Shown one piece after another: positions 19,871-36,468 of a DNA stretch of 60,103 nucleotides. A model generated the notes under the pieces. It worked only from the letters and a program-made list of their open reading frames with translations, did no database searches and was not told the origin of the DNA. A program made the translations under genes and the position numbers. The stretch is from a virus (Duplodnaviria; Caudoviricetes), in IMG/VR virus record IMGVR_UViG_3300027573_000033, positions 1 through 60,103 of that record; one strand, written 5' to 3'. Positions within the stretch are counted from its first letter, which is position 1; each line of letters starts with the position of its first letter.

Positions 19871-19910
19871 GATTAGGGCTGTTTACAAGTGATAGTCGTC
19901 ATGTTATAAT
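19871..19910 (+). promoter_or_regulatory. Divergent rightward promoter lacking the palindrome
   Basis: GATTAGGGCTG-TTTACA-N17-TATAAT. Confidence 0.75.
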
Positions 19911-19934: not shown

Positions 19935-20570
19935 ATGAGACTAGACGTTGGATTGCCCGATGAGGTGTCCGACTCGGAGAGGGTGCGACGGCTCCTGGTC
20001 GGCAGGTTCATGTGTCGCGCCGACGGCGATAACACCATCCAGGTCTCGCCACTGGCCTGGGACTACCTGATCGGCATGGGCCTGCTCGTCGACCCGATCG
20101 GCGGTCGCATGGCGGTGGACCCCGAGTGGGCGTCGTACCGCCGGCTGGATAACTGGGAGTGGCTCATAGCCAGGAACAGGGAACTGTTCTCGGACCGGCT
20201 GGTTGACATGATCAACGACGTGTCGAAGACCGTGGAGGAGTACACCGTCGGCCTGTCGGCGGACGAGTACAGGATCCTCCTGAATTACGGCGGGAGGGAC
20301 GTGTACGATTTTTTTGTGTTCGACCACCGGTTCGGCGCTCCGCCCCGGGGTCGGGAGTATAGGAGCAACCTGCGGAAGCCGTGGCACGAGGGGCCGAGGA
20401 GGGGCCGGCCCGATAACGGCCTGCTCGCCCTTCGCAGGAGGATCGACCGCAGGATGGATCGCGGGGAGGACGTGTCAGACGACCTGGTCGAGCTGCTCCG
20501 GAGGCGGGGCCTGATCGAGCGGGGGCTGGACTGGAGGGATGTTCCGCCCCAGACCGAGACCGATGATTAG
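19935..20570 (+). CDS. Hypothetical protein
   Basis: 211 aa, GAGGAGG RBS, own promoter. Confidence 0.7.
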   Translation: MRLDVGLPDEVSDSERVRRLLVGRFMCRADGDNTIQVSPLAWDYLIGMGLLVDPIGGRMAVDPEWASYRRLDNWEWLIARNRELFSDRLVDMINDVSKTVEEYTVGLSADEYRILLNYGGRDVYDFFVFDHRFGAPPRGREYRSNLRKPWHEGPRRGRPDNGLLALRRRIDRRMDRGEDVSDDLVELLRRRGLIERGLDWRDVPPQTETDD

Positions 20571-20604
20571 GGGCGTGTACTTCCGAGCTCGGATGTAGTA
20601 TAAT
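20565..20604 (+). promoter_or_regulatory. Repeated promoter-operator
   Basis: GATTAGGGGCG-TGTACT-TCCGAGCTCGGATGTAG-TATAAT. Confidence 0.8.
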
Positions 20605-20610
20605 GGTAGA

Positions 20611-20850
20611 GTGATCGATCGACCTAAGGAGAGACTCGTGATCCTGTACCTGACCGGCGCCTACGGGCGAGACTACAACACCCCCGAGGGGGCGAGGGCC
20701 GACTGGCATGCGGGCAAGGATTTCCGCATCACCGGCGGGCCGTACTGCAGCGTGAGGGATAAGGCCCTCCTCTTCGAGAAGGGCTTCGGGGCGATAGTCG
20801 TGCTGAATCGCTCCACCGGCCGGCAGGTGTACGCGGAGACGCTGGCGTGA
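20611..20850 (+). CDS. Conserved phage hypothetical protein
   Basis: AYGRDY......ADW.AGKDF motif. Confidence 0.7.
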   Translation: MIDRPKERLVILYLTGAYGRDYNTPEGARADWHAGKDFRITGGPYCSVRDKALLFEKGFGAIVVLNRSTGRQVYAETLA

Positions 20851-21347
20851 CGGAGCTGCCGCGGATGCTGCAGGCCGACGTGCTGGCCGCGTACCCCGAG
20901 CCGGAGTTCCTCCGGCCGTGGCGGGTGATCGTCACGTGCAAGCTGATGAACCTGTGCACCGCCGACCAGGCGAGGGGCGTGGTCTACAACCTGTTCGGGG
21001 CGTGGGATCACCCCGCTCGACTGGCCTCGGCCGGGGAGGGGCTGGAGGAGCTGCTCCGGCCGCTCGGCATGAAGAGCGTACGGGCCGCCGCCCTGCGCCA
21101 GATGTCCTACGACTTCCAGCGGGGCGTGCCGGCCGAGCGGTGCTTCGGCGTCGGGCAGTACGCCGTCGAGAGCCTGCGGATATTCATCGGCGGGGACCTG
21201 AACTTCGAGCCGGACGACGTCAAGCTCAGGGCCTACGTGCGAGCGGCGAAGGCAGTTAAGAGCGCTGCTCTGCCTACGGAGTGCTGTGGCGGGGATGAGG
21301 ACGACTGCATATGGGGCATAGCCAACTGCCCTAAGGAGAGGTCGTGA
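20847..21347 (+). CDS. MBD4-like HhH-GPD DNA glycosylase
   Basis: PWRVIVTCKLMN, LEELLRPLGM...RA, HhH FGVGQYAVESLRIF and PDDVKL parallel MBD4 PWKLLIATIFLN, SELLKPLGL...RA, HGIGKYGNDSYRIF and PEDHKL (catalytic Asp). Confidence 0.8.
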   Translation: MTELPRMLQADVLAAYPEPEFLRPWRVIVTCKLMNLCTADQARGVVYNLFGAWDHPARLASAGEGLEELLRPLGMKSVRAAALRQMSYDFQRGVPAERCFGVGQYAVESLRIFIGGDLNFEPDDVKLRAYVRAAKAVKSAALPTECCGGDEDDCIWGIANCPKERS

Positions 21348-21733
21348 ACTTCACGATACTGGTCGGTGACGTGGTCACCGTCAGGCCGAATCGAGAGCGG
21401 ACCCGCGGGCTCGTAGGCATCGAGATGATCGTGATCCGGGAGTTCGGGCACGGCATCTTCTGGTGTGAGGGTCCGGATGGTTTCGTGTGGCGCCTTCACA
21501 GCGCCGAGCTGGACCGGGCGCGCCGTCCGTCGGACGAGCGGAGGCGGGCTGAGATAGACGAGCGCCTCCTCGTCGCGGAGAGGCGCCGCCAGGCGGAGCT
21601 CGTCGTGATCGAGAACAACGCCCGGATGTACGCCCGGGTGAGGAGGTACGGTGTCCGACTGACGGCCAAGGGGCTGCCGGACGGGCGTATGAAGTTCGTC
21701 CTACCGCCCAGGATCCGGGCGAAGGGGAGGTGA
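21344..21733 (+). CDS. Hypothetical protein
   Basis: 129 aa, GTGA overlap; SH3/KOW-like N-terminus (VGDVVTV). Confidence 0.6.
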   Translation: MNFTILVGDVVTVRPNRERTRGLVGIEMIVIREFGHGIFWCEGPDGFVWRLHSAELDRARRPSDERRRAEIDERLLVAERRRQAELVVIENNARMYARVRRYGVRLTAKGLPDGRMKFVLPPRIRAKGR

Positions 21734-21734
21734 T

Positions 21735-22004
21735 ATGCTAGATCATAGGCCGAAGTGTCAAGTCGAGGAGTGCATGAGGGAGGCCGCACAGCGTGTGGCG
21801 CTCAAGGTGAAGGCCCTGAACGGCGCTGGGGACATGGTGCTGTTCCTCAAGGTGTACTCGTGCGACAAGCATGCCACGCCGTACACGGCTAAGCGGGTGC
21901 TCGACGACGATCGCACCAGGCGCAGCATACAGGCGACCCTCCTGAGGAGGGGGGTCTCGATGGTATCATGGGAAGAGTCCGAGGCCGGCTGGGCCCGGAT
22001 CTAG
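21735..22004 (+). CDS. Hypothetical zinc-binding protein
   Basis: CQVEEC...CDKH; GGAGG RBS. Confidence 0.6.
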   Translation: MLDHRPKCQVEECMREAAQRVALKVKALNGAGDMVLFLKVYSCDKHATPYTAKRVLDDDRTRRSIQATLLRRGVSMVSWEESEAGWARI

Positions 22005-22013
22005 GGGAGCGCT

Positions 22014-22175
22014 ATGTCGAATATCAAGAAGTACCGGCCGGCCTCGTCACACGATGACGCGTCCAAGTTCCGGCGTCGTATGAAGGCGTACGCTAAGCTC
22101 GAAAAATTGCGGGAGGCCGCGCTTAGGGCCCCAGTCGAGGCGGTGGTCCTGCCCATCAAGGGCCGGAAGCCCTAA
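22014..22175 (+). CDS. 53-aa basic protein
   Basis: GGGAG RBS; MSNIKKYRPASSHDDASKFRRRMKAYAK... Confidence 0.55.
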   Translation: MSNIKKYRPASSHDDASKFRRRMKAYAKLEKLREAALRAPVEAVVLPIKGRKP

Positions 22176-22195: not shown

Positions 22196-22226
22196 TTTAC
22201 ACAAGTAGCAATAACTGTGGTATAAT
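22196..22226 (+). promoter_or_regulatory. Promoter of the replication operon
   Basis: TGG-TATAAT extended -10 at 22221-22226; TTTACA upstream. Confidence 0.55.
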
Positions 22227-22298: not shown

Positions 22299-24755
22299 GT
22301 GTTCAATGCAGAGCTTGCGCTGAAATTTTCGCGCATCGGGTTCTTTATCTTCCCGCTGTATAGAAGCACTAGCACGGATAGGCCATGGGTCGAGGCGAAA
22401 GGCTGGAACCGATTTCCCGGGGGACTGCCCTCGGATGGCCGCATAGAGCCCGAAAAGGGCGAGGTCCCGGCCACATCCGACGAAAGCTCCATCCGACAGT
22501 GGGCGAACAGCGCCGTCACGGTCGGATACGGGATCTGCGCGCCGTTTAACCTGATCTTCGACCTTGACGTCAAGCACGGCAAGAACGGGGTCACGGAGTT
22601 TACGGACATAAAGGCGCGATTCGGGGTCCCGAATCCGTCACTGATAGTCAAGACCAAGTCAGGCGGGCTCCACCTGTACTACGCTCGCGAGCCGGACCTG
22701 GTGCCCGCCAAGGTCGGCAAGGCCACAGACCTGCGAATCGATCAGCGGATCCACGCCGGGGTGGACCTGATCGCCAATTCCGGCTACGTCGTAGGTCCCG
22801 CCCATGAGGGCACCAAGGACGATTGGGCCGAGGGGCGATACACGCTGATCAAGGCGAACTTCGACGCCCTGACCGTGTGCCCGACAGAGGTGTACCGGGG
22901 CCAGATTCGCACCACGGCCGCCGATCGAGTGGTGGCCAGATCCACCACGGCCGATGAGCTGATCGTCAACGCCTACCAGAGCGAGGACGATGACCTGATG
23001 GGGCTGATACGGGCGGGTAAGGTGCCCGAGAAGATCCCGGCCGGCAGGAGGGACAGCCTCCTGACGTCCCTGATCGGCGTCCTAAAGGCTAGGCGACTGC
23101 CTAGGGACACGGTCCGCATGGTGTGTGATAAGTTCCTAGAGAACTGCGAGCTGGCCATCGGCGAGACTCGCGAGCAGTTCCTGAAGGCCATAGGTCTGGA
23201 CAGCAAGTTATCGCGGTTTTACTCCGTGCCGGGGGACGTGAACGATCCCCGCGTGGTGGCGAGGGAGCTGGTGGATATCGGCAAGTGCTTCAAGCTAGTG
23301 GATCAGCTGCCCGGGGCCGTGGCGTTCATAGCCATGGCCGATAACGGGTACCTGTCGCCCAGGATCATCTATACGGAGACCAAGGCCCGCCAGGACCTAG
23401 CTCCGTTCGCCAGGCCGATACCGGATTCGGAGAATAAGAGGCCCGTGAATCCGCTGGATCTCGTGATGAGGGACTCCTCCATGCCCCGGGTGCACAGCAC
23501 GGGGTACATCCCTAAGCCGGTCATGGCGTACATAGACCCGGCCGACGGTACCGAGAGGGTCAACCTGTACGTGCCACCACAGATCCCGATAGGGTGCCGT
23601 AACCCGTCCGGCGTGGTGCAGAGGTACGAGGACCTGGTGTACGAGATCTGCGGTGATATGACCGATTACTTCCTCGATTTCATGGCCCACGTAGTGCAAC
23701 GGCCTTGGATCAAGATGGGCCAGGCGCTCCTGATCATATCTCACGCGCACGGGTCCGGCAAGAACACCCTGGTGCAGGTGATGAAGCCCCTGATAGGCCC
23801 CAAGAACTACCTCCCGGTGTCGGGGCTGTCCCCGCTGGTCGAGGACAAATCCGTGGTCATGGACTGTAACGTGTTAGTGGTGTTCAACGAGGTGTCCAGG
23901 CCGGCCAACCGCAATGCCTGGACCGACATGTCCAGGGCGGTGAACAAGCTGAAGACGGCCATATCGGAGTCCTCGGCGCAGATCAACCCGAAGTACGAGC
24001 GACAGCGCACCATAACCACGTACTCCAACTTCGTGATGCTATCCAACGACGATTGCCCCTATGACCTCGATCAGGGGGACCGTCGCATAGCGGTGGTGAA
24101 CAATGACCCGCCGAAGCTGGACCAGGCCAAGTTCGGCCCGGTCGCCGATTTTGCCCATAACGAGAAGAACATGCGACTCACCCCTCGCGAGTACGAGGAC
24201 ATGGTCTTCGAGTTCAACGAGTTCTTCCGGGCCCGAAAGGTCTCACACAATCTCACCACGGCCGACGCGCCGATGGGCGAGGCGAAGCGGGCCATGCTCA
24301 CGTCGATGGCCTCGCCCATCGCCCAGGCCCTGCGAGACTTCAGGATGGTGAAGAGCGCCGGCACCGACGGGCGGTTCATCAGCGAGGACATGATCATCTA
24401 CATCCTCCGCCACCGGTTGGGGTTCAAGGAGTTCGGTAAGGATCGTGGGCGGTACGACATATTCGAGCAGTTTGTGGACAATGGCATCGTGCACAGGCTG
24501 GGGCAAAAAGGAAACCAGAAGAAGGCTCGAGTCATCGTAGGTCTCCCCGCCCTGCGTGACAGGGAGGATTCCCCGCTCATCGGCCCGATCCGGCCGCTCG
24601 ACGGGCCCAGCAAGACCTTCGTCTGGGCCGACCAGGGACTGCTCCTGCACGATATTTCGGACGCCGCCGTCAGGGACGAGCTGTGGACCGCCAGCTCGCG
24701 CCTCCGGGACCCTAACCCGACCGGAAAGTCGGACGTCCTCAGCATAATCAAATGA
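22299..24755 (+). CDS. Bifunctional primase-polymerase fused to an SF3 helicase
   Basis: AEP motifs DLDVK and TKSGGLHLYY; Walker A HGSGKNT; VFNEV; MLSN. Confidence 0.9.
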   Translation: MFNAELALKFSRIGFFIFPLYRSTSTDRPWVEAKGWNRFPGGLPSDGRIEPEKGEVPATSDESSIRQWANSAVTVGYGICAPFNLIFDLDVKHGKNGVTEFTDIKARFGVPNPSLIVKTKSGGLHLYYAREPDLVPAKVGKATDLRIDQRIHAGVDLIANSGYVVGPAHEGTKDDWAEGRYTLIKANFDALTVCPTEVYRGQIRTTAADRVVARSTTADELIVNAYQSEDDDLMGLIRAGKVPEKIPAGRRDSLLTSLIGVLKARRLPRDTVRMVCDKFLENCELAIGETREQFLKAIGLDSKLSRFYSVPGDVNDPRVVARELVDIGKCFKLVDQLPGAVAFIAMADNGYLSPRIIYTETKARQDLAPFARPIPDSENKRPVNPLDLVMRDSSMPRVHSTGYIPKPVMAYIDPADGTERVNLYVPPQIPIGCRNPSGVVQRYEDLVYEICGDMTDYFLDFMAHVVQRPWIKMGQALLIISHAHGSGKNTLVQVMKPLIGPKNYLPVSGLSPLVEDKSVVMDCNVLVVFNEVSRPANRNAWTDMSRAVNKLKTAISESSAQINPKYERQRTITTYSNFVMLSNDDCPYDLDQGDRRIAVVNNDPPKLDQAKFGPVADFAHNEKNMRLTPREYEDMVFEFNEFFRARKVSHNLTTADAPMGEAKRAMLTSMASPIAQALRDFRMVKSAGTDGRFISEDMIIYILRHRLGFKEFGKDRGRYDIFEQFVDNGIVHRLGQKGNQKKARVIVGLPALRDREDSPLIGPIRPLDGPSKTFVWADQGLLLHDISDAAVRDELWTASSRLRDPNPTGKSDVLSIIK

Positions 24756-24860: not shown

Positions 24861-25274
24861 ATGCGAGATTGCATCTTTTGCGTGTTAGACGGCGTCCTGG
24901 CGGACTCGGCGCATCGCCGGTCCGTGACCAATCCGGCCATGATCGGCCCGGTGGTGAAGGGCGATAGCGTCGTGGAGCCGGTCAAGGAGCTGCTCGCGTG
25001 CATGTACGCGGCGGACTACCTGATCTACATCTACACCCATCGACCGAGGGAGGCCGAGGAGGACACCGTCGAGTGGCTCCACCAGAACGGGGTGCGCTAC
25101 TGGCGACTGCTCACCGTCCCGGAGGTCAGGGGAGTGCCCCAGGCCAAGGTCAAGCTAGACCTGATCGGCAGCCTCGACCTGACTGACCGATTGCGCTTCG
25201 TCATCGACTGTGACGAGGCGTCGATCCGCCTATGGAGGGCCTTTAACATCCCCTGCTTCCGACTGGAGCTGTGA
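24861..25274 (+). CDS. HAD-family (PNKP-phosphatase-like) protein with degenerate active site
   Basis: IFCVLDGVLAD..HR, YTHR and T.EWL..NGV are present, but the first Asp of DxD is replaced. Confidence 0.7.
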   Translation: MRDCIFCVLDGVLADSAHRRSVTNPAMIGPVVKGDSVVEPVKELLACMYAADYLIYIYTHRPREAEEDTVEWLHQNGVRYWRLLTVPEVRGVPQAKVKLDLIGSLDLTDRLRFVIDCDEASIRLWRAFNIPCFRLEL

Positions 25275-27163
25275 TGAGAGAGCTATTCGGCCTAGACGTT
25301 GAGACGGCCGGCACCGTCAAGGAGGTGGCCCAGTTCGCCGGGCTAGAGCCGTGGCGCATGTGGCGAGGTCACGCTCACATAACGGACGTGGGCGTGTGCC
25401 GGCCGGATGGGTCGACATTGGCCCTGTCTCGCAGGAAGATGGGGGACGACCTGTTCGAGCGGTCGGTCAGGGAGGTCCTGAGAGACCTGGCCGGCAAGGT
25501 CGTGTACTGCCAGAACACCGTATTCGATCTGGCCTGGATACTGGGTACCCTCAAGGGAAGTCGTACGGAGCAAATTCCCGGGGAACTTAGAGCCATAAAA
25601 TGGCAGGATACCAAGCTCCTGGCGAAATGGCTGGCCAACGGACAGTACGCCGAGGACACGAGGTTCAGCTACTCTCTCGTGAACCTGGTCAAGACCTTCC
25701 TGCCGAACCACCCGCTAACGGAGGAGTTCGTCCGGATCAAGAGCGGTGATATGCCCGAGGCCGGGCAGGATCCGGAGTACTGGGAGAAGCGAAACCTGTA
25801 TGACGTGATCCTGACTCGCGCACTGGCCGAGTACCTCGAGGACAAGCTCCCGTCCGGCCAGAGGATGGGCTACGGCACAGAGATGAGGAACCTGCTGCCC
25901 GTGGCCAATAGCTGGCTCACCGGCATTCGAGTTAACGTGGGCCGCCTCGAGGAGGTGGAGTTCGACTTCCTGCGAGAGCAGAAGGAGATCATCGATAGGA
26001 TCGGGATCTCACCGTCCGTGATCACCTCGCCCAAGCAGCTAGGTCACCTGCTGTTTAAGGAGATGGGCCTGTCGCCGACCAAGTACACGCCGACCGGCAC
26101 GCCGTCCACGGCGGCCGACGAGCTGAAGATGATCATGTATCGCATGACCCAGGGCGATGACCCTAGGGCCCCCGTCATGAGGGACATCTGCCGGTACAAG
26201 CAGGTCGCCACCCTCATGTCGAAGTACGTGACTGCCGCCAAGGAGGCGCTGCGGCATACCGGTGACGGGTTCATATACGGCTGTCCCATCATATTCGGGA
26301 CCTACACTGGTCGATACACGTACGCGTCTAAGACGCTGGATACGTGGCGAACAGGCATTGCGTTGCACCAGATCCCTCGCAGGGACAAGGCGATCCGGTC
26401 ATTCCTCGCCCCGCCTGACGGTTATAAGGTTTACGAGGCGGATGCTGCGGGCCAGGAGTCTCGTCTCATGGCCATCAGGTCGGGCGACCCTAACATGCTG
26501 AAGGTGTTCTCGGACGGGCTGGACTTTCACGCCGTTACGGGCTCCAACGTGGTGGGCAGGGAGTACGACGAGTTCATGACCCAGTACCGCGCCGGCGACC
26601 ATCGCACCATCGAGGAGCGCCAGTACGGCAAGCTGACTAACCTGTCCTGCAACTATCGCATCGGCGGTAAGGCCCTCTCTAAGAAGGCCTTCGACGACTA
26701 TGACATGTTCATGACGGTGGATCAGGGCATGTTCCTCGTCAACGGGTTCTCTCGCACATACCAGGGCGTGCCCAAGTACTGGCGCGAGGTCATCATCGAG
26801 TCTAAGGCTAAGGGGTACACCGAGGCGTTCGGCGGGCGTAGGTACAAGATCCGACACTGGAACGGCGACCGCTCGTGGGAGTCGGAGTCCTCGGCCATCA
26901 ACCTCCCGATCCAGGGCGGAGGGGCGTCGATGAAGAACATCGCCATCGCCGAGATCCACGAGGCCGACGCCGACTGCCACTTCAGCCTAGACCTGCATGA
27001 CGCGTCATTCGTGTGGGTGCCGGAGGACCGGGCCCAGGAGAAGAAGGAGATCCTGGATCGGACGCTGGCCGAAATCGATTATAGCAAGTATTGGGGCTTC
27101 ACGCCCTCCATCCCGCTACCGTACGATTCCAAGGTCGGTGCCAATTTTGGGGAAGTAAAATAA
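25274..27163 (+). CDS. polA: Family A DNA polymerase with 3'-5' exonuclease
   Basis: ExoI LDVET, ExoII N..FD, ExoIII YD; motif A DAAGQESR, motif B RQYGKLTNLSCNY, motif C LHD. Confidence 0.95.
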   Translation: MRELFGLDVETAGTVKEVAQFAGLEPWRMWRGHAHITDVGVCRPDGSTLALSRRKMGDDLFERSVREVLRDLAGKVVYCQNTVFDLAWILGTLKGSRTEQIPGELRAIKWQDTKLLAKWLANGQYAEDTRFSYSLVNLVKTFLPNHPLTEEFVRIKSGDMPEAGQDPEYWEKRNLYDVILTRALAEYLEDKLPSGQRMGYGTEMRNLLPVANSWLTGIRVNVGRLEEVEFDFLREQKEIIDRIGISPSVITSPKQLGHLLFKEMGLSPTKYTPTGTPSTAADELKMIMYRMTQGDDPRAPVMRDICRYKQVATLMSKYVTAAKEALRHTGDGFIYGCPIIFGTYTGRYTYASKTLDTWRTGIALHQIPRRDKAIRSFLAPPDGYKVYEADAAGQESRLMAIRSGDPNMLKVFSDGLDFHAVTGSNVVGREYDEFMTQYRAGDHRTIEERQYGKLTNLSCNYRIGGKALSKKAFDDYDMFMTVDQGMFLVNGFSRTYQGVPKYWREVIIESKAKGYTEAFGGRRYKIRHWNGDRSWESESSAINLPIQGGGASMKNIAIAEIHEADADCHFSLDLHDASFVWVPEDRAQEKKEILDRTLAEIDYSKYWGFTPSIPLPYDSKVGANFGEVK

Positions 27164-30053: not shown

Positions 30054-30440
30054 ATGCCCATAAATATCGCAGCACTGGTGAAGGAGTATCGAGAGGTGCG
30101 AGACGCCCTGGATCAGGAGCGTCACCGCTACCAGGAATTCGAGCGTGGGGCCAAGGATAAGATGGCCCAGCTCAGCATGGCGTTGCGCGAGGTGGCCGAC
30201 GAGATGGGCGTGGATTCGTTCCGCACCGACGAGGGCACGGCGTATCGCGTGGTGAAGGAGTCGTATCGGGTCGGGGTGTGGGAAGATGTCCTCGCCTGGA
30301 TCAAGGAGACCGGCAACTGGCAGTGCCTCGAGAAGAGGATCGGCAAGCTGGCCACGAAGGAAGTTCATCAGGAGACGGGCGAGCTCCCGCCCGGAGTGGA
30401 GTACGACGCGGAGGTTGAGTTCGTCGTGCGCAAATCGTAG
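30054..30440 (+). CDS. Conserved coiled-coil replication/recombination protein
   Basis: G.DS.RT..GT.Y, LEKR, LPPGV motifs; AGGAG RBS. Confidence 0.7.
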   Translation: MPINIAALVKEYREVRDALDQERHRYQEFERGAKDKMAQLSMALREVADEMGVDSFRTDEGTAYRVVKESYRVGVWEDVLAWIKETGNWQCLEKRIGKLATKEVHQETGELPPGVEYDAEVEFVVRKS

Positions 30441-30464: not shown

Positions 30465-31334
30465 ATGAGCAACTTACCCGTAGTACCGGACTACCTGAAG
30501 GCCTTCATGGCCCCGGGCCAGACGCAGTCCTCGGATACGGAGTCGATGGCCTCGGCCTCGATCTCCATCCCGAGGGTCTCGCTCAGGGCCAAGAAGTTTC
30601 GCTGGATCGAGCAGGGCGAGGAGCTATTCGCCGAGCCGGAATCGCACGTCGTGATCCTGGCCGCGGAGCCGGGCAGCGGTCGGTTCGTCAAGACGTACTA
30701 TGACGGACCGTATAACCCGGGCGACTCAAGCCCGCCGACCTGCAGCTCCTCCGACGGCGTCACTCCCGACTCGTGGGTCACCACTCCGCAAAACGGGGTG
30801 TGCGCCACGTGCAAGTGGAACCAGTTCGGCTCGGCTACGAGTCGGACGGGCAAGAAGTCGAAGGCCTGCCGCGACGCCAAGAGACTGTGGCTGGTTAGGG
30901 CGGACGATATTTCTGGCACCGTTTTTGGGATGAACGTGCCCGTCACGTCGCTCAAGAGCCTGTCAGAGCTCGGCCACCAGATCAAGTCCATCAACGCTCC
31001 GCTCTCGGCGGCCGTAGTCAAGCTGACCATGGATGAGGACGAGTCCTACCCCATCATCTCCTTCACGCTGGAGGGCTGGCTCAATGACAAGTGGGGCCCA
31101 GTCGCCATGAAGCGGAACGAGGGGAAGGACTGGCCCGGCGCGCTGAAGGACGGGCCCGCAGGTCCCGCCCTCTCGGCCCCGGCTCGACAGCCCCAGCTGC
31201 CGGTCAACGAGGCGGAGCAGGTCAAGGAGCCGTCGACTCAGGCTAAGGTGGCGCAGACCCCGCAGACCATCGAGGGGCAGTCCACCCCGGCCAAGGGTAA
31301 CAGCGCCGACGACGCCCTCTCCACCTGGGGGTGA
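30465..31334 (+). CDS. Putative single-stranded DNA-binding protein
   Basis: PR.S, Y.G.Y....PPTC.S.DG.TP, C..C..NQFGS, KAC; acidic/aromatic C-terminus DDALSTWG. Confidence 0.65.
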   Translation: MSNLPVVPDYLKAFMAPGQTQSSDTESMASASISIPRVSLRAKKFRWIEQGEELFAEPESHVVILAAEPGSGRFVKTYYDGPYNPGDSSPPTCSSSDGVTPDSWVTTPQNGVCATCKWNQFGSATSRTGKKSKACRDAKRLWLVRADDISGTVFGMNVPVTSLKSLSELGHQIKSINAPLSAAVVKLTMDEDESYPIISFTLEGWLNDKWGPVAMKRNEGKDWPGALKDGPAGPALSAPARQPQLPVNEAEQVKEPSTQAKVAQTPQTIEGQSTPAKGNSADDALSTWG

Positions 31335-31375: not shown

Positions 31376-31386
31376 CAGGAGATTTG

Positions 31387-33042
31387 ATGGACCATCTGAT
31401 CCTGTCGCTGGGCCATAACAGCTCGGCGATACTCGTTCGTGATAACAAGATCGTGGCAGGCTACGAGACCGAGCGCCTGTCCGGCGTCAAGTCGGACTCT
31501 AGCTTCCCTAAGGGGGCCATAGAACTGCTGATCAGCCAGTGCGGGCTCTCCGATCCGGACATATACGTCAGTCACTGGGAGCTGTTCGGCGATGTGAATA
31601 AGATGGCCAAGAAGCACTGGGATTCGGGCTATCTGGTGTCCAGGTTTCCGAAGGCCAGGATCTTCTCGACCAACGAGTACTTCACCCATCACGACGCTCA
31701 CGCGTGGAGCTCGATCACCTTCGCCGGTGACATACCATGCCAGGCCAAGGACCGCACGTTCATGATCGTGTGTGACGGGTTCGGCACGTTCGGCGAGCAC
31801 CTCAGCATCTATAGGTACATCGACGGCATACCCATCCTGATCGAGCGGAAGTACGGGTTCGGCACGTCGTTGGGCCTGCTATATCAGTACACCACCTCGT
31901 ACCTGGGGATGAAGATGAACCAGGACGAGTACAAGCTCCTGGCATTCGAGGCGCACATCGACGCCCTATTCGAGGCTAAAGCCGTATTCGAGAAGTCCCT
32001 GCGCGAGGTCATAGAAGCCACCTCCGACATGTACCTGGCCAGGCTGGGGTCCTACATGACGGAGGAGCGGACCGATCCGATGCTCAGCATCGGCGCGCTG
32101 CCCACCATAGCCAGCAACGTCGGCGACCTGCTGGCTAATACGGTTAAGGCCGTGCAGGCGAGGGACCTTAGCCACACCGAGCGCAGGATAGTCGTGGCGT
32201 ACTTCGTGCAGTCGGTGGTGGAGCGGACCCTGACGGGCCTGCTCAGCACGCTGAACATGGATAACCTGATCCTGTCAGGCGGCGTGTTCTACAACGTCAA
32301 GGTCAACAGCGCCATATCACGCATGGTCAAGGGCCGGATCGCCGTCATGCCGCTGGCCGGAGACCAGGGCGCCGGGCTTGGCGTGTATGCGGCCATGTAC
32401 CCGGAGCTGGAGTGGCCCGGTCACCTGTTCTGGGGCCATAGGCGCCTGAGCGCCGAGCAGTTCGACGGCACGCCGAACCTGAACTACTTCAGCTACGGTC
32501 AGGGGGATCGGGCCTTCGACGCCATAAACACGCAGCTCCACGTAAACGGCATGGTTAACGTCGTGCGAGGGGCGATGGAGTTCGGACCCAGGGCGCTGTG
32601 TCACACATCCACGCTAGCACGGCCGTCGGCCGAGGTGGCGGCATACATCAATCACATCAACGATCGGACGAACGAGATGCCCTTCGCCCCGGTCATGACC
32701 GCCGCCCAGGCCAACGAGAGCCTGATTGGGTGTGATAAGGTGCACAAATCCCTCGAGTATATGATCATAACCAGGGACGTGCACCCGGACCGGGGGGATG
32801 CGCTGGTCGGGGCCTCACACTTCGACAGGGATAGAATGGTGTACACCGCTCGGCCGCAGGTGGCATCTGACGCTAGGATCCTGGACCTGCTAGAGGAGCA
32901 CGGTCCGCTGATCAACACCAGCTTCAACTTCCACGGCAGGCCGATAGTGTTCGACGCGGGGCAGATACTGCACACCCACGCGCTCGAGCAACAGCGGGTC
33001 GATCAGGATCGGCCCATCGCAACCGTAGTCATAGGAGAGTAG
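31387..33042 (+). CDS. NodU/CmcH/TobZ-family O-carbamoyltransferase
   Basis: GHNSSA, ERLSGVK, HHDAHA, DGFG, SLGLLY, EYKL, SGGVFYN, GDQG, EFGPRAL, PFAP, NTSFN.HG.PIV. Confidence 0.95.
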   Translation: MDHLILSLGHNSSAILVRDNKIVAGYETERLSGVKSDSSFPKGAIELLISQCGLSDPDIYVSHWELFGDVNKMAKKHWDSGYLVSRFPKARIFSTNEYFTHHDAHAWSSITFAGDIPCQAKDRTFMIVCDGFGTFGEHLSIYRYIDGIPILIERKYGFGTSLGLLYQYTTSYLGMKMNQDEYKLLAFEAHIDALFEAKAVFEKSLREVIEATSDMYLARLGSYMTEERTDPMLSIGALPTIASNVGDLLANTVKAVQARDLSHTERRIVVAYFVQSVVERTLTGLLSTLNMDNLILSGGVFYNVKVNSAISRMVKGRIAVMPLAGDQGAGLGVYAAMYPELEWPGHLFWGHRRLSAEQFDGTPNLNYFSYGQGDRAFDAINTQLHVNGMVNVVRGAMEFGPRALCHTSTLARPSAEVAAYINHINDRTNEMPFAPVMTAAQANESLIGCDKVHKSLEYMIITRDVHPDRGDALVGASHFDRDRMVYTARPQVASDARILDLLEEHGPLINTSFNFHGRPIVFDAGQILHTHALEQQRVDQDRPIATVVIGE

Positions 33043-33043
33043 A

Positions 33044-33439
33044 GTGAAACATTCGCTGGAGCAGGTCATGCGGTTCAACCACGAGATCCTCGGGATCGAG
33101 CCTCGCATCCTCGGCCCGATGCAGCCGGACGAGGCGGATCACCTGGTCAGGTGCCTGGACGAGGAGACGAGCGAGTTCACGGCGGCCTTCGTCAATCACG
33201 ATTTCATTGGCCAGATCGACTCGATCATGGACCTGATGTACTTCGCCATGGGCGGCCTGTACAAGATGGGCCTGTCCGCCGAGACGGCCGAACAGATCTT
33301 CTCCGCCATCCATGACGCCAACATGACCAAGAAAAAGGGCGTGGTGGCGAGGCGCGACAACGGATCGCCCGACGCCATCAAGCCCGAGGGGTGGCGCTCG
33401 CCAGAGGAGAGGATCGCCGAGATCCTAGACGGGGCGTAA
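33044..33439 (+). CDS. MazG/PRA-PH-like nucleotide pyrophosphohydrolase
   Basis: EE..E, D...D..YF..G, H.ANM.K, KPEGW..P. Confidence 0.85.
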   Translation: MKHSLEQVMRFNHEILGIEPRILGPMQPDEADHLVRCLDEETSEFTAAFVNHDFIGQIDSIMDLMYFAMGGLYKMGLSAETAEQIFSAIHDANMTKKKGVVARRDNGSPDAIKPEGWRSPEERIAEILDGA

Positions 33440-33440
33440 C

Positions 33441-33968
33441 ATGATCGTGCTCGAGGGGCCGGATAACTCCGGAAAGACAACACTGGCCGACGCTCTAAGG
33501 CGCGAATTCGCCTTCGAGAAGTTCACGGCCGGACCAGCCCCGTCAACCCATGACGAGCTCGTGCGATGCCTGCACGATCAGGAGGGTCGCATCTGGCAGC
33601 CATGCATCCACGACCGGGTCACCTGCATCAGCCAGCAGGTGTACTCGGGCCGTGACGCCATGCTCGACGCGTTTTTGCGTCGCATGGCCGGGCCGGCCGT
33701 TATCGTGTACTGCCGCCCGCCGGAGCGGACCCTGATGGATTTCTCCACACACAGGGTGAAGGGTTATGATACTGAGGAGTCGCTGCGCAGGCTCATGGAC
33801 CGGCAGCACGAATACATCGGTCGGTACGACGACCTGATGAGCACGGTCGGCCACGTCAAGTACGACTGGACCGACGAGGGGCTGAACAAGGACGGGTTCA
33901 TCCAGTTCGTTCATTACGCCATGATGGACGAGTCGATCAAACGAAACCTTTACGGGCTACCGGCATGA
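33441..33968 (+). CDS. P-loop dNMP kinase
   Basis: IVLEGPDNSGKTT, DR...S..VY. Confidence 0.85.
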   Translation: MIVLEGPDNSGKTTLADALRREFAFEKFTAGPAPSTHDELVRCLHDQEGRIWQPCIHDRVTCISQQVYSGRDAMLDAFLRRMAGPAVIVYCRPPERTLMDFSTHRVKGYDTEESLRRLMDRQHEYIGRYDDLMSTVGHVKYDWTDEGLNKDGFIQFVHYAMMDESIKRNLYGLPA

Positions 33969-34789
33969 GCAACTCGAACTGTAGGGCCTTCCTCCACATG
34001 TACCGCGAGCTGATGTGCGGATGGAAGGTGTCACCGAGGGGGTCAGAGGTGTTAGAGTGTGAGGACTTCGTGCTTAACCTGCACATGGACGAGTCTGTCC
34101 TCACGTCGTTCTTAGCGCGTAACCTGAATCTCAAGTACGCGAAGTCGGAGTTCATCTGGTACATGCGTGGCGACCCGTACGACACGTACATCGAGCAGTT
34201 CGCGTCCATGTGGCCGAAGATCAAGCAGCCGGCCGGGTTCTACTTCTCGAACTACGGCAAGTACCTCTTCGCCGACGGTCAGGTCAGGTGGGTCATCAAC
34301 GAGCTGACCCGTGATCGGGACTCGAGGCGAGAGTCGATCGTACTGCTGGATCAGGACCACATATTCGCGGATAACCGCGATATGGTGTGCACGTACAGCA
34401 TGAACTTCAGGATCCGTCGCCACCAGCTGAACATGTCAGTGAACATGCGCAGCAATGACGCCATATTCGGCACCACAAACGACGTATTCTCGTTCGCCAT
34501 GGTGTACGAGATCGTGTACGCGTACCTCCGCCTGACGAGATACCCAGACCTGTGTCGCGGCCTGTACTCACACAAGGTCGACAGCCTGCACGTGTATCAG
34601 AGACACTGGGACATGCTCGGCTCCATCCTGCACCACGGCGAGGCCGGCTACAAGCACATCCCCGTCCCGGAGATCCTCTCCCTGTCGGAGGCCGAGGCCA
34701 TGTTACACTATCACAAGACAAAAGGAGAGGGCATTGTATGTCCGCCAGCGTGGGAACTGATGACATGGCTGCATACCGACCAAGCGTAG
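33965..34789 (+). CDS. Thymidylate-synthase homologue, predicted dCMP hydroxymethylase
   Basis: SRR, catalytic D..CT, MRSNDAIFGTTND with Asp at the position of E. coli ThyA Asn177 / T4 gp42 Asp179, and SLHVY. Confidence 0.85.
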   Translation: MSNSNCRAFLHMYRELMCGWKVSPRGSEVLECEDFVLNLHMDESVLTSFLARNLNLKYAKSEFIWYMRGDPYDTYIEQFASMWPKIKQPAGFYFSNYGKYLFADGQVRWVINELTRDRDSRRESIVLLDQDHIFADNRDMVCTYSMNFRIRRHQLNMSVNMRSNDAIFGTTNDVFSFAMVYEIVYAYLRLTRYPDLCRGLYSHKVDSLHVYQRHWDMLGSILHHGEAGYKHIPVPEILSLSEAEAMLHYHKTKGEGIVCPPAWELMTWLHTDQA

Positions 34790-35226
34790 ATGAGTACTTC
34801 CTTGGCATGGCAGAGCTGGCGTCCTACCGAGGGACCTGTGCGCGTCGAAGGGTGGGTTGTATTCTCGTCGACCGAAACAATCGTGTACTCTCGACGGGGT
34901 ATAACGGAGTTGCGTCCGGGCTACCTCATTGTACAGATACGCCTTGTCCGGGGGCCGGCCTACCATCCGGTACGGGTCTACATCTCTGTCAGGCCATTCA
35001 CGCGGAGGCCAACGCCCTGATCAGCTGTCGTGACCCGGAGGACATATACGCCGCGTACTGCACCGCCTCGCCGTGCGTGCAGTGTGTGCGCATGCTGATG
35101 AATACGCCGTGCATCAAGATAGTTTTCGCCGAGGAGTATCCGCACTCGGAGTCAAGGGACCTGTGGACGTTTAACAGGGTTTATGGCCGGGATGACCGGC
35201 AGTGGATTCACATACCTAAGGGATGA
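34765..35226 (+). CDS. dCMP deaminase
   Basis: R.TC.RR.VG, TGYNG, HAEANA, SPCVQC. Confidence 0.92.
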   Translation: MAAYRPSVDEYFLGMAELASYRGTCARRRVGCILVDRNNRVLSTGYNGVASGLPHCTDTPCPGAGLPSGTGLHLCQAIHAEANALISCRDPEDIYAAYCTASPCVQCVRMLMNTPCIKIVFAEEYPHSESRDLWTFNRVYGRDDRQWIHIPKG

Positions 35227-35227
35227 C

Positions 35228-35404
35228 ATGGACGTGACTGACGTTTCCAAGCGCAAGAGGGTCCTCGAAAACCAGATCCTGGCCTCTATCGAGGAGTTCG
35301 AGCGCGATACGCTCACCACCGTGATGAGCGTCGATGTCCAGAGGTTTGAGGTGACCGGCGAGAGGGACCACGTGCTGGTCACGAGCAGGGTGGAGGTGCA
35401 GTGA
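35228..35404 (+). CDS. 58-aa hypothetical protein
   Basis: Packed between the deaminase and the ligase, GTGA overlap. Confidence 0.6.
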   Translation: MDVTDVSKRKRVLENQILASIEEFERDTLTTVMSVDVQRFEVTGERDHVLVTSRVEVQ

Positions 35405-36468
35405 TCACCCTATATCGCAGCAATAAGCTGGGCGTGGGCACGTGGCGCATCTGGGCCGAGGGCAACGTCGTGAAGATGGCTCACTCCACTGTGAGCGGAG
35501 GGGCCGAGGTGTTCCACGAGGAGGTGGTGCCCATAGGCCTGGCCGGCAGGACGCTAGAGCAACAGGTGATATCGAGGGTGCAGTCCCGGATCAACCGACA
35601 GCGTGATCGAGGGTACGTAGATAGTCATGAGATCGCGTCGACCCAGCCGGTGCTCAACACCCTCAACCTGCCACCGCCCATGCTAGCCAAGAAGCTGGAC
35701 GACCTTCGTGTGTGGCCCGGCAAGGTGATCGTGCAGCCCAAGCTGGACGGGTTCAGGTGTCTCGTCACCCGTCGGCCGGATGGGTCGGTCATCTGCTACT
35801 CGCGCCAGGGCAAGGAGCTGGACGCCCTTCGCCACATCGCCACGGCGTTCGAGGGCACCCTGCCGGACGGGATCATCCTCGACGGGGAGATATACAGGCA
35901 TGGCACTCCGCTGCAGACCATCGCATCGCTGGCCAAGAAGGCCCAGCCCGGCACGGAGAAGCTCGTCCTACACGTGTACGACTCGATCAGTCGTGATATG
36001 TTCCCGGATCGGTACGCCGACGCCGCTACGGCCGTGGCCGTGGCGGCGTCCGATCGGGTGGTTGTAGTCCCAAATCAGGTGGCGAAGACCGCCAATGAGG
36101 TGTGGGATTACTTCGAGGATTTTAGGGTGCACGGGTACGAGGGCGCTATGGTGCGGATCCCGTCCTCACCGTACGAGAGCGGGACCAGGTCATCGGGCCT
36201 GCTAAAGGTCAAGGCCAGGGAGGACGCCGAGTTCGAGGTTACCGGCGTGGTGGAGGGGTCGGACGGCCTCGGCGTCCTTGTGTGCAAGATGCCGTCCGGC
36301 CGGACCTTTCGCACCCTCGCCCCGGGCCCGCACGATCAGAAGAGGTTCGTCTTCGTGCATCGGGACCAGTTCATCGGGCGTCGTGTGACGGTGGAGTACG
36401 CCAACCTCACCAATGACGGAATCCCGTTCCACCCCGTCGCCACTCGCTGGCGCCCGCTGACCGAGTAG
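35401..36468 (+). CDS. ATP-dependent DNA ligase
   Basis: QPKLDGFR, SRQGK, LDGEIY, YEGAMVR, LLKVK, OB fold G.P.HP. Confidence 0.93.
   Translation: MITLYRSNKLGVGTWRIWAEGNVVKMAHSTVSGGAEVFHEEVVPIGLAGRTLEQQVISRVQSRINRQRDRGYVDSHEIASTQPVLNTLNLPPPMLAKKLDDLRVWPGKVIVQPKLDGFRCLVTRRPDGSVICYSRQGKELDALRHIATAFEGTLPDGIILDGEIYRHGTPLQTIASLAKKAQPGTEKLVLHVYDSISRDMFPDRYADAATAVAVAASDRVVVVPNQVAKTANEVWDYFEDFRVHGYEGAMVRIPSSPYESGTRSSGLLKVKAREDAEFEVTGVVEGSDGLGVLVCKMPSGRTFRTLAPGPHDQKRFVFVHRDQFIGRRVTVEYANLTNDGIPFHPVATRWRPLTE

Follow-up and report, generated by a model that had tools for sequence, protein, structure and literature searches.

The IMG/VR virus record IMGVR_UViG_3300027573_000033 (Caudoviricetes) is a 60,103 bp sequence with 62% GC and a CheckV completeness of 100%, and its full length is referred to here as the window. 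One of its open reading frames (ORFs), confirmed at exactly 20847-21347 on the + strand, encodes a 166-amino acid (aa) protein that, judging from its sequence, profile and predicted fold, is close to certain to belong to the MBD4 branch within the HhH-GPD (helix-hairpin-helix) DNA glycosylases. The same genome encodes a cytosine-modification pathway, and we lean towards the reading that the glycosylase repairs deaminated modified cytosine in phage DNA. Here, we describe the protein, its genomic surroundings and its viral relatives, and we weigh this reading against other roles that such an enzyme might have.

A stand-alone MBD4-type glycosylase

The sequence matches of the 166-aa protein among solved structures all belong to a single enzyme type. 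A phmmer search against all PDB chains returned 15 distinct matching sequences, and all 15 are MBD4 glycosylase domains, the best being 4ew4_A (E 3.3e-6, query residues 20-130). The alignment sets the query segment 'epddvklray' on 'hpedhklnky' of MBD4, placing PDDVKL on PEDHKL, which bears out the motif likeness, including the catalytic Asp, that the original prediction had claimed. General models respond only weakly to the protein (Pfam HhH-GPD at E 0.15, below the cut-off; NCBIfam nth at E 0.023), and PHROGs gave no match for it. Because the generic HhH models are weak while the matches are to MBD4 only, the likeness is specific to MBD4 rather than a generic HhH signal.

A search of 1.84 billion representative proteins found 766 relatives at E ≤ 0.001, of which 113 at E ≤ 1e-10, most of them 120-190 aa in length. 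The query was aligned with 59 of the 150 relatives listed, resulting in a 60-sequence alignment whose profile matches MBD4 over its full length (8.2e-38), well ahead of Mig.Mth (1kea; 1.8e-13), EndoIII (3.2e-13) and MutY (4.7e-10). Pfam HhH-GPD is passed by 53/60 of the aligned sequences at E ≤ 0.01. An AlphaFold2 (AF2) model built with the same alignment has a predicted local distance difference test (pLDDT) score of 91.4, with residues 145-166 alone being weak (pLDDT 55-68). A Foldseek search with this model, a structural check against MBD4 that had been proposed at the outset, placed MBD4 at all of ranks 1-16 with target template-modeling (TM) scores of 0.79-0.82, while EndoIII came next at 0.40 and Mig scored 0.41. 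Identity to the MBD4 structures is ~21-23% (Foldseek). A word-indexed protein search returned only the glycosylase itself and one fragment that is 88% identical.

The residues with which MBD4 reads and cleaves its substrate are largely kept. Residue roles were taken from the available text of PMC3458566 and PMC3479182, and mapped through the phmmer, 60-sequence and profile alignments (MBD4 positions are given as mouse/human). D124 corresponds to the catalytic Asp534/560 and is invariant in 60/60 of the aligned relatives. Y105, in 'GVGQYAVES' on MBD4 'GIGKYGNDS', corresponds to Tyr514/540 in the HhH hairpin, in a column that is at least 90% conserved. In MBD4, this Tyr hydrogen-bonds O2 of the base and occupies the site of the lyase Lys of bifunctional enzymes, such as Lys249 in hOGG1 (PMC3458566), and its replacement (Y514F) nearly abolishes activity (PMC3458566, PMC3479182). 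The lyase Lys of EndoIII/OGG1-type HhH motifs is likewise absent from the phage protein, with Tyr105 at that position. Q9 corresponds to Gln423/449, as its column is at least 90% Gln and is placed by the 60-sequence profile on 'LVQE' of MBD4; there, Gln423/449 hydrogen-bonds N3 and O2 of the flipped pyrimidine, and Q449A is inactive (PMC3458566, PMC3479182). Furthermore, K126 corresponds to Lys536/562, which stacks on the flipped base in MBD4, N35 to Asn441/467, and L73-G74 to Leu480-Gly, in the loop that uses its main chain to read the orphan guanine, while Met75 replaces the wedge Leu482/508. The retention of these hydrogen-bonding residues points to a substrate base of the thymine or uracil type, lying opposite G.

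Beyond the glycosylase core, the protein contains little else. A methyl-CpG-binding domain was not found in the protein, which is only 166 aa long and shows nothing in Pfam beside the weak HhH-GPD match. The C-X6-C-X2-C-X5-C Fe-S loop of EndoIII, MutY and Mig, predicted to be lacking, is indeed absent from the 166-aa sequence. The last 22 residues (145-166; window 21279-21344) do hold four Cys residues in a CC-X6-C-X6-C arrangement (C145, C146, C153 and C160), which are unique to this lineage and not conserved in the family; the idea that this tail forms an Fe-S loop or a conserved zinc site was rejected, as relatives do not keep it. Different, zinc-ribbon-like CxxC...CxxC tails occur in a few family members (P0042, P0115 and P0120).

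A full-text literature search found no paper describing a phage MBD4-type glycosylase, although supplementary gene tables of the Xp12, AXL_1 and MetaGPA papers may mention one. No such glycosylase is mentioned in the main texts, as far as available, of the Xp12 genome paper (PMC7653180), the MetaGPA paper and the preprint 10.1101/2024.12.05.627091.

Cytosine-modification genes in the window and in other carriers

The glycosylase gene lies ahead of a long array of replication and modification genes on the same strand (Table 1). Their order is primase-polymerase, PNKP-type phosphatase, PolA, PD-(D/E)XK nuclease, SNF2 helicase, two conserved genes of no assigned function, carbamoyltransferase, MazG-like hydrolase, kinase, thymidylate synthase (TS) homologue, deaminase and ATP-dependent ligase. 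The TS homologue is of the cytosine type: against the PDB it matches CMP hydroxymethylase (2e-15) and T4 dCMP hydroxymethylase (6e-13) better than TS (7e-7), and its 'TTND' aligns with 'FRND' of T4 dCMP hydroxymethylase (D179), whereas true ThyA has 'PFN', with Asn at that position. As shown in PMC8670742, 5-hydroxymethylcytosine (5hmC) is converted to 5-carbamoyloxymethylcytosine by a carbamoyltransferase that occurs in a phage together with a TS homologue. As the window encodes the same set of a carbamoyltransferase and an Asp-type TS homologue, its phage very probably carries 5-carbamoyloxymethylcytosine in its DNA. The cytosine-modification genes claimed to accompany the glycosylase are present in the same genome.

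Several details of this module stand beside these main components. The deaminase gene shares ~25 nt with the 3′ end of the TS homologue, and the pairing of TS and deaminase genes also occurs in the phages Xp15 and Xp12. The PNKP-type HAD phosphatase at 24861-25274, between the primase and PolA genes, has no kinase domain and is a possible healer of 3′-phosphate ends. Directly before the carbamoyltransferase gene are two conserved ORFs at 30054-30440 (+) and 30465-31334 (+), which are common to another carrier of the glycosylase (G049), and genes of the same size are found at those positions in Xp15 (gp40 and gp41). One of the two matches only PHROGs of unknown function and the other a 'minor head protein' PHROG, a label that looks misplaced; both may be members of the modification pathway. 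In this genome, no uracil-DNA glycosylase (UDG) gene and no abasic-site (AP) endonuclease gene of the Xth or Nfo families was found.

The glycosylase gene itself sits in a block of six small ORFs (19935-22175). It starts with GTG and has a GC content at third codon positions of 0.90; translation could instead begin at an in-frame ATG (20865), which would give 160 aa, and a GGAG lies 7-9 nt 5′ of both candidate starts. A GTGA overlap is found at both of its ends, with the stop of the 79-aa ORF upstream and with the GTG start of the 129-aa ORF downstream. Sigma-70-like sites, which are consensus matches only, number 3 per 3 kb against 0.7 expected from shuffles. A megablast search of GenBank phages with 5 kb around the glycosylase gene gave no match, and within the phage genome no tRNA genes were found and PADLOC gave no match, the glycosylase included.

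Table 1. Features of the window around the glycosylase gene and along the downstream replication and modification genes
Feature	Position	Strand	Evidence or remark
Sigma-70-like promoter match (TTTACA, 17 nt, TATAAT, with TG)	19882..19910	+	11/12 consensus; precedes the small-ORF block with the glycosylase gene
First ORF of block, 211 aa	19935..20570	+	No Pfam, PHROG or PADLOC match
79-aa ORF	20611..20850	+	No family; stop overlaps glycosylase start (GTGA)
Stand-alone MBD4-type HhH-GPD DNA glycosylase, 166 aa	20847..21347	+	Core residues ~5-140; Cys-rich tail 145-166
129-aa ORF	21344..21733	+	No family; GTG start overlaps glycosylase stop (GTGA)
89-aa ORF	21735..22004	+	No family
Second promoter-like site	22198..22226		Before primase gene; consensus match only
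Primase-polymerase with DUF5906 ATPase	22299..24755	+	Prim-Pol 2.8e-11, DUF5906 8.6e-13
HAD phosphatase, PNKP type, stand-alone	24861..25274	+	HAD_PNKP 5.2e-7; phrog_415 polynucleotide kinase 1.6e-16
Family A DNA polymerase	25271..27163	+	DNA_pol_A 4.5e-45; 48% identical to Xp15 polymerase
Carbamoyltransferase (NodU/TobZ type)	31384..33042	+	Carbam_trans_C 3.5e-23, Carbam_trans_N 1.6e-19; 44% identical to Xp15 gp39
MazG-like nucleotide pyrophosphohydrolase	33044..33439	+	PRA-PH 5.5e-9
P-loop nucleotide kinase	33441..33968	+	Weak AAA_33 and AAA_18 matches; dTMP kinase 5e-4
TS homologue, Asp at the pyrimidine-specificity position (cytosine type)	33965..34789	+	PDB matches and motif
dCMP/cytidine deaminase family gene	34765..35226	+	PF00383 1.1e-18 at 34786-35130; ATG 34765 start read by eye
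ATP-dependent DNA ligase	35401..36468	+	DNA_ligase_A_M 6.2e-20, OB domain 1.3e-8

Among cultured phages, the nearest to the window are Xanthomonas phage Xp15 and the Acinetobacter phages Effie, HHU4 and MD-2021a, with polymerases that are 44-48% identical, carbamoyltransferases that are 41-44% identical, and a shared order of replication and modification genes. The glycosylase is found in other cultured phages: five tblastn queries against 50,697 GenBank phage records retrieved full-length members in nine distinct phages only, namely the Xp12-like phages Xp12, YB23, DoCa6, FMYAK-P1, Ep029, MET13-T1, AXL_1 and Donnerlittchen, and cyanophage S-TIM54. Aeropyrum virus APSV1 and a further four contigs of faecal phages gave partial HhH matches, which cover only 46-69% of the query and were not counted. 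Xp12 is the classic phage in which all cytosine is replaced by 5-methylcytosine (5mC). In Xp12, AXL_1 and Donnerlittchen, the genes follow the order glycosylase, pyrophosphohydrolase, TS homologue, deaminase and dihydrofolate reductase (DHFR); in the first two of these phages, the glycosylase and pyrophosphohydrolase genes overlap. The available text of the preprint 10.1101/2024.12.05.627091 describes the Xp12 TS homologue as making 5mdCMP. Asp occupies the TS specificity site in 4/4 GenBank carriers typed (Xp12, AXL_1, Donnerlittchen and S-TIM54), and S-TIM54 additionally encodes a C5-methyltransferase. The Xp12 family member, QNN97216.1 (L015 4893-5375), is labelled 'hypothetical protein' in GenBank, as are those of DoCa6, FMYAK-P1, MET13-T1 and YB23.

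Many more carriers are found among uncultured viruses. A pattern search of viral contigs with the single query protein found no relative and a six-sequence alignment found one locus, while two scans of 2.9 million viral contigs (IMG/VR) with family patterns yielded 54 loci in the first and 105 relatives in the second, 80 of the latter being kept. From the first set, 49 records were scored (five left out) and from the second, 40 (shorter contigs and four repeats left out). Most of these records are fragments of large phages, 4-36% complete, on which the absence of a gene says little. PF00303 (TS) matches occur in 14/49 and 24/40 of them, and motif typing divides the TS genes into three groups: ordinary Asn-type ThyA, in a group of large phages; clear Asp-type homologues, in G013, G027, G049, G053, G069, G075 and G076; and a divergent but conserved TS-fold ORF of ~260 aa with 'RSCDYIRHFRDD', in which the second Asp falls on the specificity site. 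This divergent ORF was sequence-checked in G017, G073, G074, G077, G081 and G088, and is inferred from the same 17-19-bit signature in G064, G066, G068, G072, G080, G082, G084 and G085. In the PDB, it matches TS best (E 9e-4). Such an ORF is present in many large phages with the glycosylase (L200 1078-1863, in G077; also L090, L192, L193, L194 and L201); the catalytic Cys context is kept, and an ordinary ThyA is encoded elsewhere in the same genome. Among the 12 carriers that are at least 90% complete, nine have an Asp-type or divergent Asp-type TS (G000, G049, G066, G068, G075, G080, G082, G084 and G085), three typed by sequence and six from the weak-match signature. The co-occurrence with Asp-type TS genes that the original prediction had proposed to check was found in several separate lineages (Xp12-like, S-TIM54, G049, G075, G013 and others).

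Other modification genes accompany the glycosylase in subsets of carriers. Genes with a carbamoyltransferase C-domain are present in 10/90 carriers; for scale, a different method found them in 19/50,697 records of another collection, GenBank. The carbamoyltransferases of G013, G049 and G075 are 40-44% identical to the window enzyme and are encoded 0.7-1.1 kb from an Asp-type TS gene, with G049 sharing the whole module order with the window. One 74-kb fragment carrying the glycosylase (G070; L150, contig positions 7007-22940) has three separate carbamoyltransferase genes within 16 kb. A homologue of the T4-type DNA alpha-glucosyltransferase lies ~2 kb from the glycosylase gene in one lineage of ten contigs, to which all 8/49 scored records with such a gene belong (L059 12355-13575, and seven more among G032-G037, G039 and G050). 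In this lineage, an Asn-type ThyA gene lies ~2 kb on the other side, and in record G050, which is 70% complete, no dCMP hydroxymethylase was detected. A C5-methyltransferase was rejected as a general partner of the glycosylase (0/49 carriers): only G001, where it lies ~1 kb from the glycosylase gene, and S-TIM54 have one. PF00383 deaminase genes were found in 12/14 carriers examined and in 14/16 genomes when the non-carriers Xp15 and Effie are included; as these two have the deaminase without the glycosylase, the former was rejected as a predictor of the latter. Among 144 neighbour proteins from 11 loci, a Pfam tally of replication and nucleotide metabolism counted DNA polymerase B four times, ribonucleotide reductase three times, and ThyA, ThyX and ligase once each. 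In the largest IMG/VR cluster (21 loci; L044 9965-10765, L066 9968-10744 and L051 9968-10732), the glycosylase ORF is 254-266 aa long; its C-terminal extension of ~125 aa belongs to no Pfam family, and the Atlas clusters it with 67 HhH-GPD proteins, all of them from viruses. That these longer forms are fusions with a TS-like domain was considered and rejected, as the additional segment matches no Pfam family and resembles known folds only weakly.

In pattern scans, the family is enriched in viruses compared with cells. Among 185,579 prokaryote species genomes, two same-family patterns gave 2 and 12 pattern matches and 0 relatives, whereas nearly the same patterns gave 54 and 105 in viral contigs. 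These are narrow patterns, which do not match even the query protein. The mainstream of the family is thus strongly enriched in viruses; absence from cells does not follow.

Proposed repair of deaminated cytosine and other possible roles

UDG is not known to remove a deaminated 5-modified cytosine. Phages with 5-substituted cytosine lose the protection of UDG, as deamination then yields thymine-like bases, and a dedicated phage enzyme for such damage, if true, would be a missing piece of hypermodified-genome stability. In the reading that we favor, the phage protein would act as a monofunctional MBD4-type glycosylase, with no lyase activity, Fe-S cluster or methyl-CpG-binding domain. It would scan duplex phage DNA and flip out a uracil-type base opposite guanine. 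Candidate bases are thymine, uracil, 5-hydroxymethyluracil and probably 5-carbamoyloxymethyluracil, the predicted deamination product of the modified cytosine of the phage. The base would be read by Gln9, Tyr105 and a main-chain amide, and the glycosidic bond cut by Asp124. Cleavage of the abasic site left behind would fall to an AP endonuclease of the host, as none was found in the phage, and the gap would be filled and sealed, plausibly by the PolA and ligase of the phage. We infer this substrate range, biological role and set of downstream steps from sequence. The location of the gene, behind a strong match to a host-type promoter and ahead of the replication genes, would fit the mending of an injected genome before it is copied.

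Four lines of evidence favor repair of deaminated modified cytosine: the enzyme family, the kept active-site residues, the modification genes of the phage, and the co-occurrence in other viruses. At least eight unlike lineages combine the glycosylase gene with genes for cytosine modification, and in Xp12 these lie next to it, which argues that the damage it mends is deaminated modified cytosine. Several observations weigh against this. Within the protein, the Arg finger of MBD4 (Arg442/468), which fills the gap and locks the flipped base, is replaced by Leu36, aligned with the Arg of 'LNRT', Gly445/471 is replaced by Ala39, and an 8-residue insertion parts Q9 from the core, leaving its equivalence to rest on alignment. 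The change at the finger position is shared by the glycosylases of Xp12, AXL_1 and S-TIM54, and the position is variable among the 140 family members with the motif (R 62, K 23, L 20 and Q 18). Within the genome, the original prediction had the phage finishing repair with its own polymerase and ligase; both are encoded, but with no AP endonuclease gene among those of the phage, its enzymes cannot make up the whole repair pathway. Among related phages, Xp15 and Effie share the pair of Asp-type TS and carbamoyltransferase with the window, and profile searches found no MBD4-type gene in them. Likewise, the matches of the five glycosylase tblastn queries include not one of the 19 phage records in GenBank that encode a homologue of the carbamoyltransferase. 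The gene is therefore an optional accessory rather than an obligatory part of the pathway. Among the carriers, 3/12 of those at least 90% complete (G060, G061 and G067) have Asn-type ThyA only, G019 (79% complete) has no match to a TS, C5-methyltransferase, glucosyltransferase or carbamoyltransferase, and a C5-methyltransferase is found in none of the 49 IMG/VR carriers. Finally, the co-occurrence counts cover carriers only and so give no enrichment figure. Because the Arg finger is missing, sister phages lack the gene, and the counts come from carriers only, the repair role is put forward here conditionally.

The source of the damage may also be enzymatic. In this variant, which we consider unlikely, the chemistry is the same but the glycosylase safeguards the phage against deaminases, by mending G:U- or G:T-type mismatches in phage DNA, whether a host deaminase made them or the phage enzyme did so on single-stranded replication intermediates. 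The deaminase gene directly follows the TS homologue in the window, and does so in Xp12-like phages two genes beyond the glycosylase, while a PF00383 gene is present in most of the carriers examined. According to the available text of the preprint 10.1101/2024.12.05.627091, deaminases linked to such TS genes prefer 5mC and 5hmC, and one such enzyme deaminates both in single-stranded DNA in vitro, with minimal activity on intact double-stranded DNA. Furthermore, dCMP deaminases are common in phages, and in Xp15 and Effie the gene is kept where the glycosylase is missing, so it is not predictive. A role as a proof-reader of the modification pathway appears improbable. Here, the glycosylase would remove thymine- or 5-hydroxymethyluracil-type nucleotides that are misinserted opposite G from a deaminase-fed pool, as the TS homologue, kinase and deaminase would create 5-substituted dUTP analogues; the gene also sits with replication genes here and in relatives, DNA polymerase B and ribonucleotide reductase being among the neighbours tallied above. 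Such an enzyme could do without a choice of strand only where the strand with the G is invariably the correct one; as the same holds for deamination, the two roles are indistinguishable from sequence.

Alternatively, as the original prediction also raised, the glycosylase could be offensive, excising bases from host or competitor-phage DNA so that abasic sites block replication while the modified DNA of the phage is spared. Its position in a block of small ORFs of no assigned function behind a strong host-type promoter match is one often taken by early host-takeover genes, and HhH-fold glycosylases have repeatedly been recruited for host-phage conflict (bioRxiv 10.1101/2025.10.29.685425, as far as its text is available). 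The change at the Arg finger could mark an altered target, but Leu at this position is common in the family (20/140 members with the motif, Xp12 included). In addition, the phage protein retains the residues behind the thymine/uracil-specific hydrogen bonds of MBD4, any DNA under attack would hold few bases of this type opposite G, and PADLOC gave no match, all of which make us doubt an offensive role. The loss of the Arg finger and the Pfam HhH-GPD score below cut-off might even suggest a catalytically silent DNA-binding protein. We regard this as very improbable, since the protein keeps the catalytic Asp together with the Tyr, Gln and Lys, D124 is invariant in 60/60 sequences, and the structural model is confident. 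Taken as a whole, repair of deaminated modified cytosine as first proposed for this gene is partly supported, by its enzyme family, kept residues, modification genes and co-occurrence, and is weakened by the Leu at the Arg finger, the sister phages Xp15 and Effie, the three carriers with ThyA only and the lack of an AP endonuclease.

The repair reading, if true, would have consequences beyond the window. The unremarked gene beside the 5mC genes of Xp12 makes the idea directly testable in culture, and an enzyme able to excise bulky 5-substituted uracils that lie opposite G might be of use as a reagent. We know of no glycosylase that acts on 5-carbamoyloxymethyluracil opposite G. Two findings are relevant to the origin of the eukaryotic MBD4 domain: the abundance of the family in viral contigs, and the lack of any relative among 185,579 prokaryote genomes when these were scanned with two patterns. 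Tentatively, and as a rather doubtful extension, one may speculate that MBD4-type glycosylases outside eukaryotes are a viral family that arose or spread as a repair partner of genomes with C5-substituted cytosine, that the member in the window excises 5-carbamoyloxymethyluracil opposite G, and that the catalytic domain of eukaryotic MBD4 came from such a viral gene.

Comparison with known glycosylases and mismatch repair enzymes

Among the closest known counterparts of the phage protein is the glycosylase domain of mammalian MBD4/MED1 (1ngn, 4evv, 4ew0, 4e9e-h, 4dk9 and 6vjw). Both have the same fold (TM ~0.8), keep the Asp, Tyr, Gln and Lys residues and the Leu-Gly pair, and have neither an Fe-S cluster nor a lyase Lys. 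The phage protein differs in being a stand-alone form of 166 aa that is without the methyl-CpG-binding domain and linker, and in its Leu36, Ala39, Met75, 8-residue insertion and four-Cys tail. The genes of Xp12-like phages, annotated in AXL_1 as 'ENDO3c domain-containing protein' and in Donnerlittchen as 'endonuclease III', belong to the same family, with the 60-sequence profile matching the AXL_1 protein at E 5e-46. They are 34% identical to the window protein and lie one gene from the TS homologue, in contrast to 12.6 kb in the window, where the glycosylase gene is at the head of the replication module. The modification also differs, being 5mC in the Xp12-like phages and a predicted carbamoylated base in the window phage.

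The task proposed for the phage enzyme is likewise performed by Vsr and by the Mig/EndoIII-like thymine glycosylases (Mig.Mth, 1kea), which act in T:G repair after 5mC deamination. Vsr, an endonuclease, is unrelated. Mig shares the HhH-GPD type, but Mig and EndoIII carry a 4Fe-4S loop that the phage enzyme lacks, and the family profile and fold lie much closer to MBD4 (8e-38, against 1.8e-13 and a target TM of 0.41 for Mig). Phages with T-modified genomes provide a parallel in their PolA-UDG fusions, as described in the available part of PMC13697223: these are also phages with a replaced base that encode their own base-excision enzyme beside replication genes, although that enzyme is of the UDG superfamily, is fused to the polymerase, and serves genomes in which T rather than C is modified. 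Finally, Dag (HhH superfamily) and Brig1 (UDG family) are glycosylases that likewise act in phage-host conflict over modified DNA, as far as the available text of bioRxiv 10.1101/2025.10.29.685425 describes them. These are host genes that destroy modified phage DNA, whereas the gene in the window is a phage gene that keeps the thymine/uracil-reading residues of MBD4 and has no PADLOC match.

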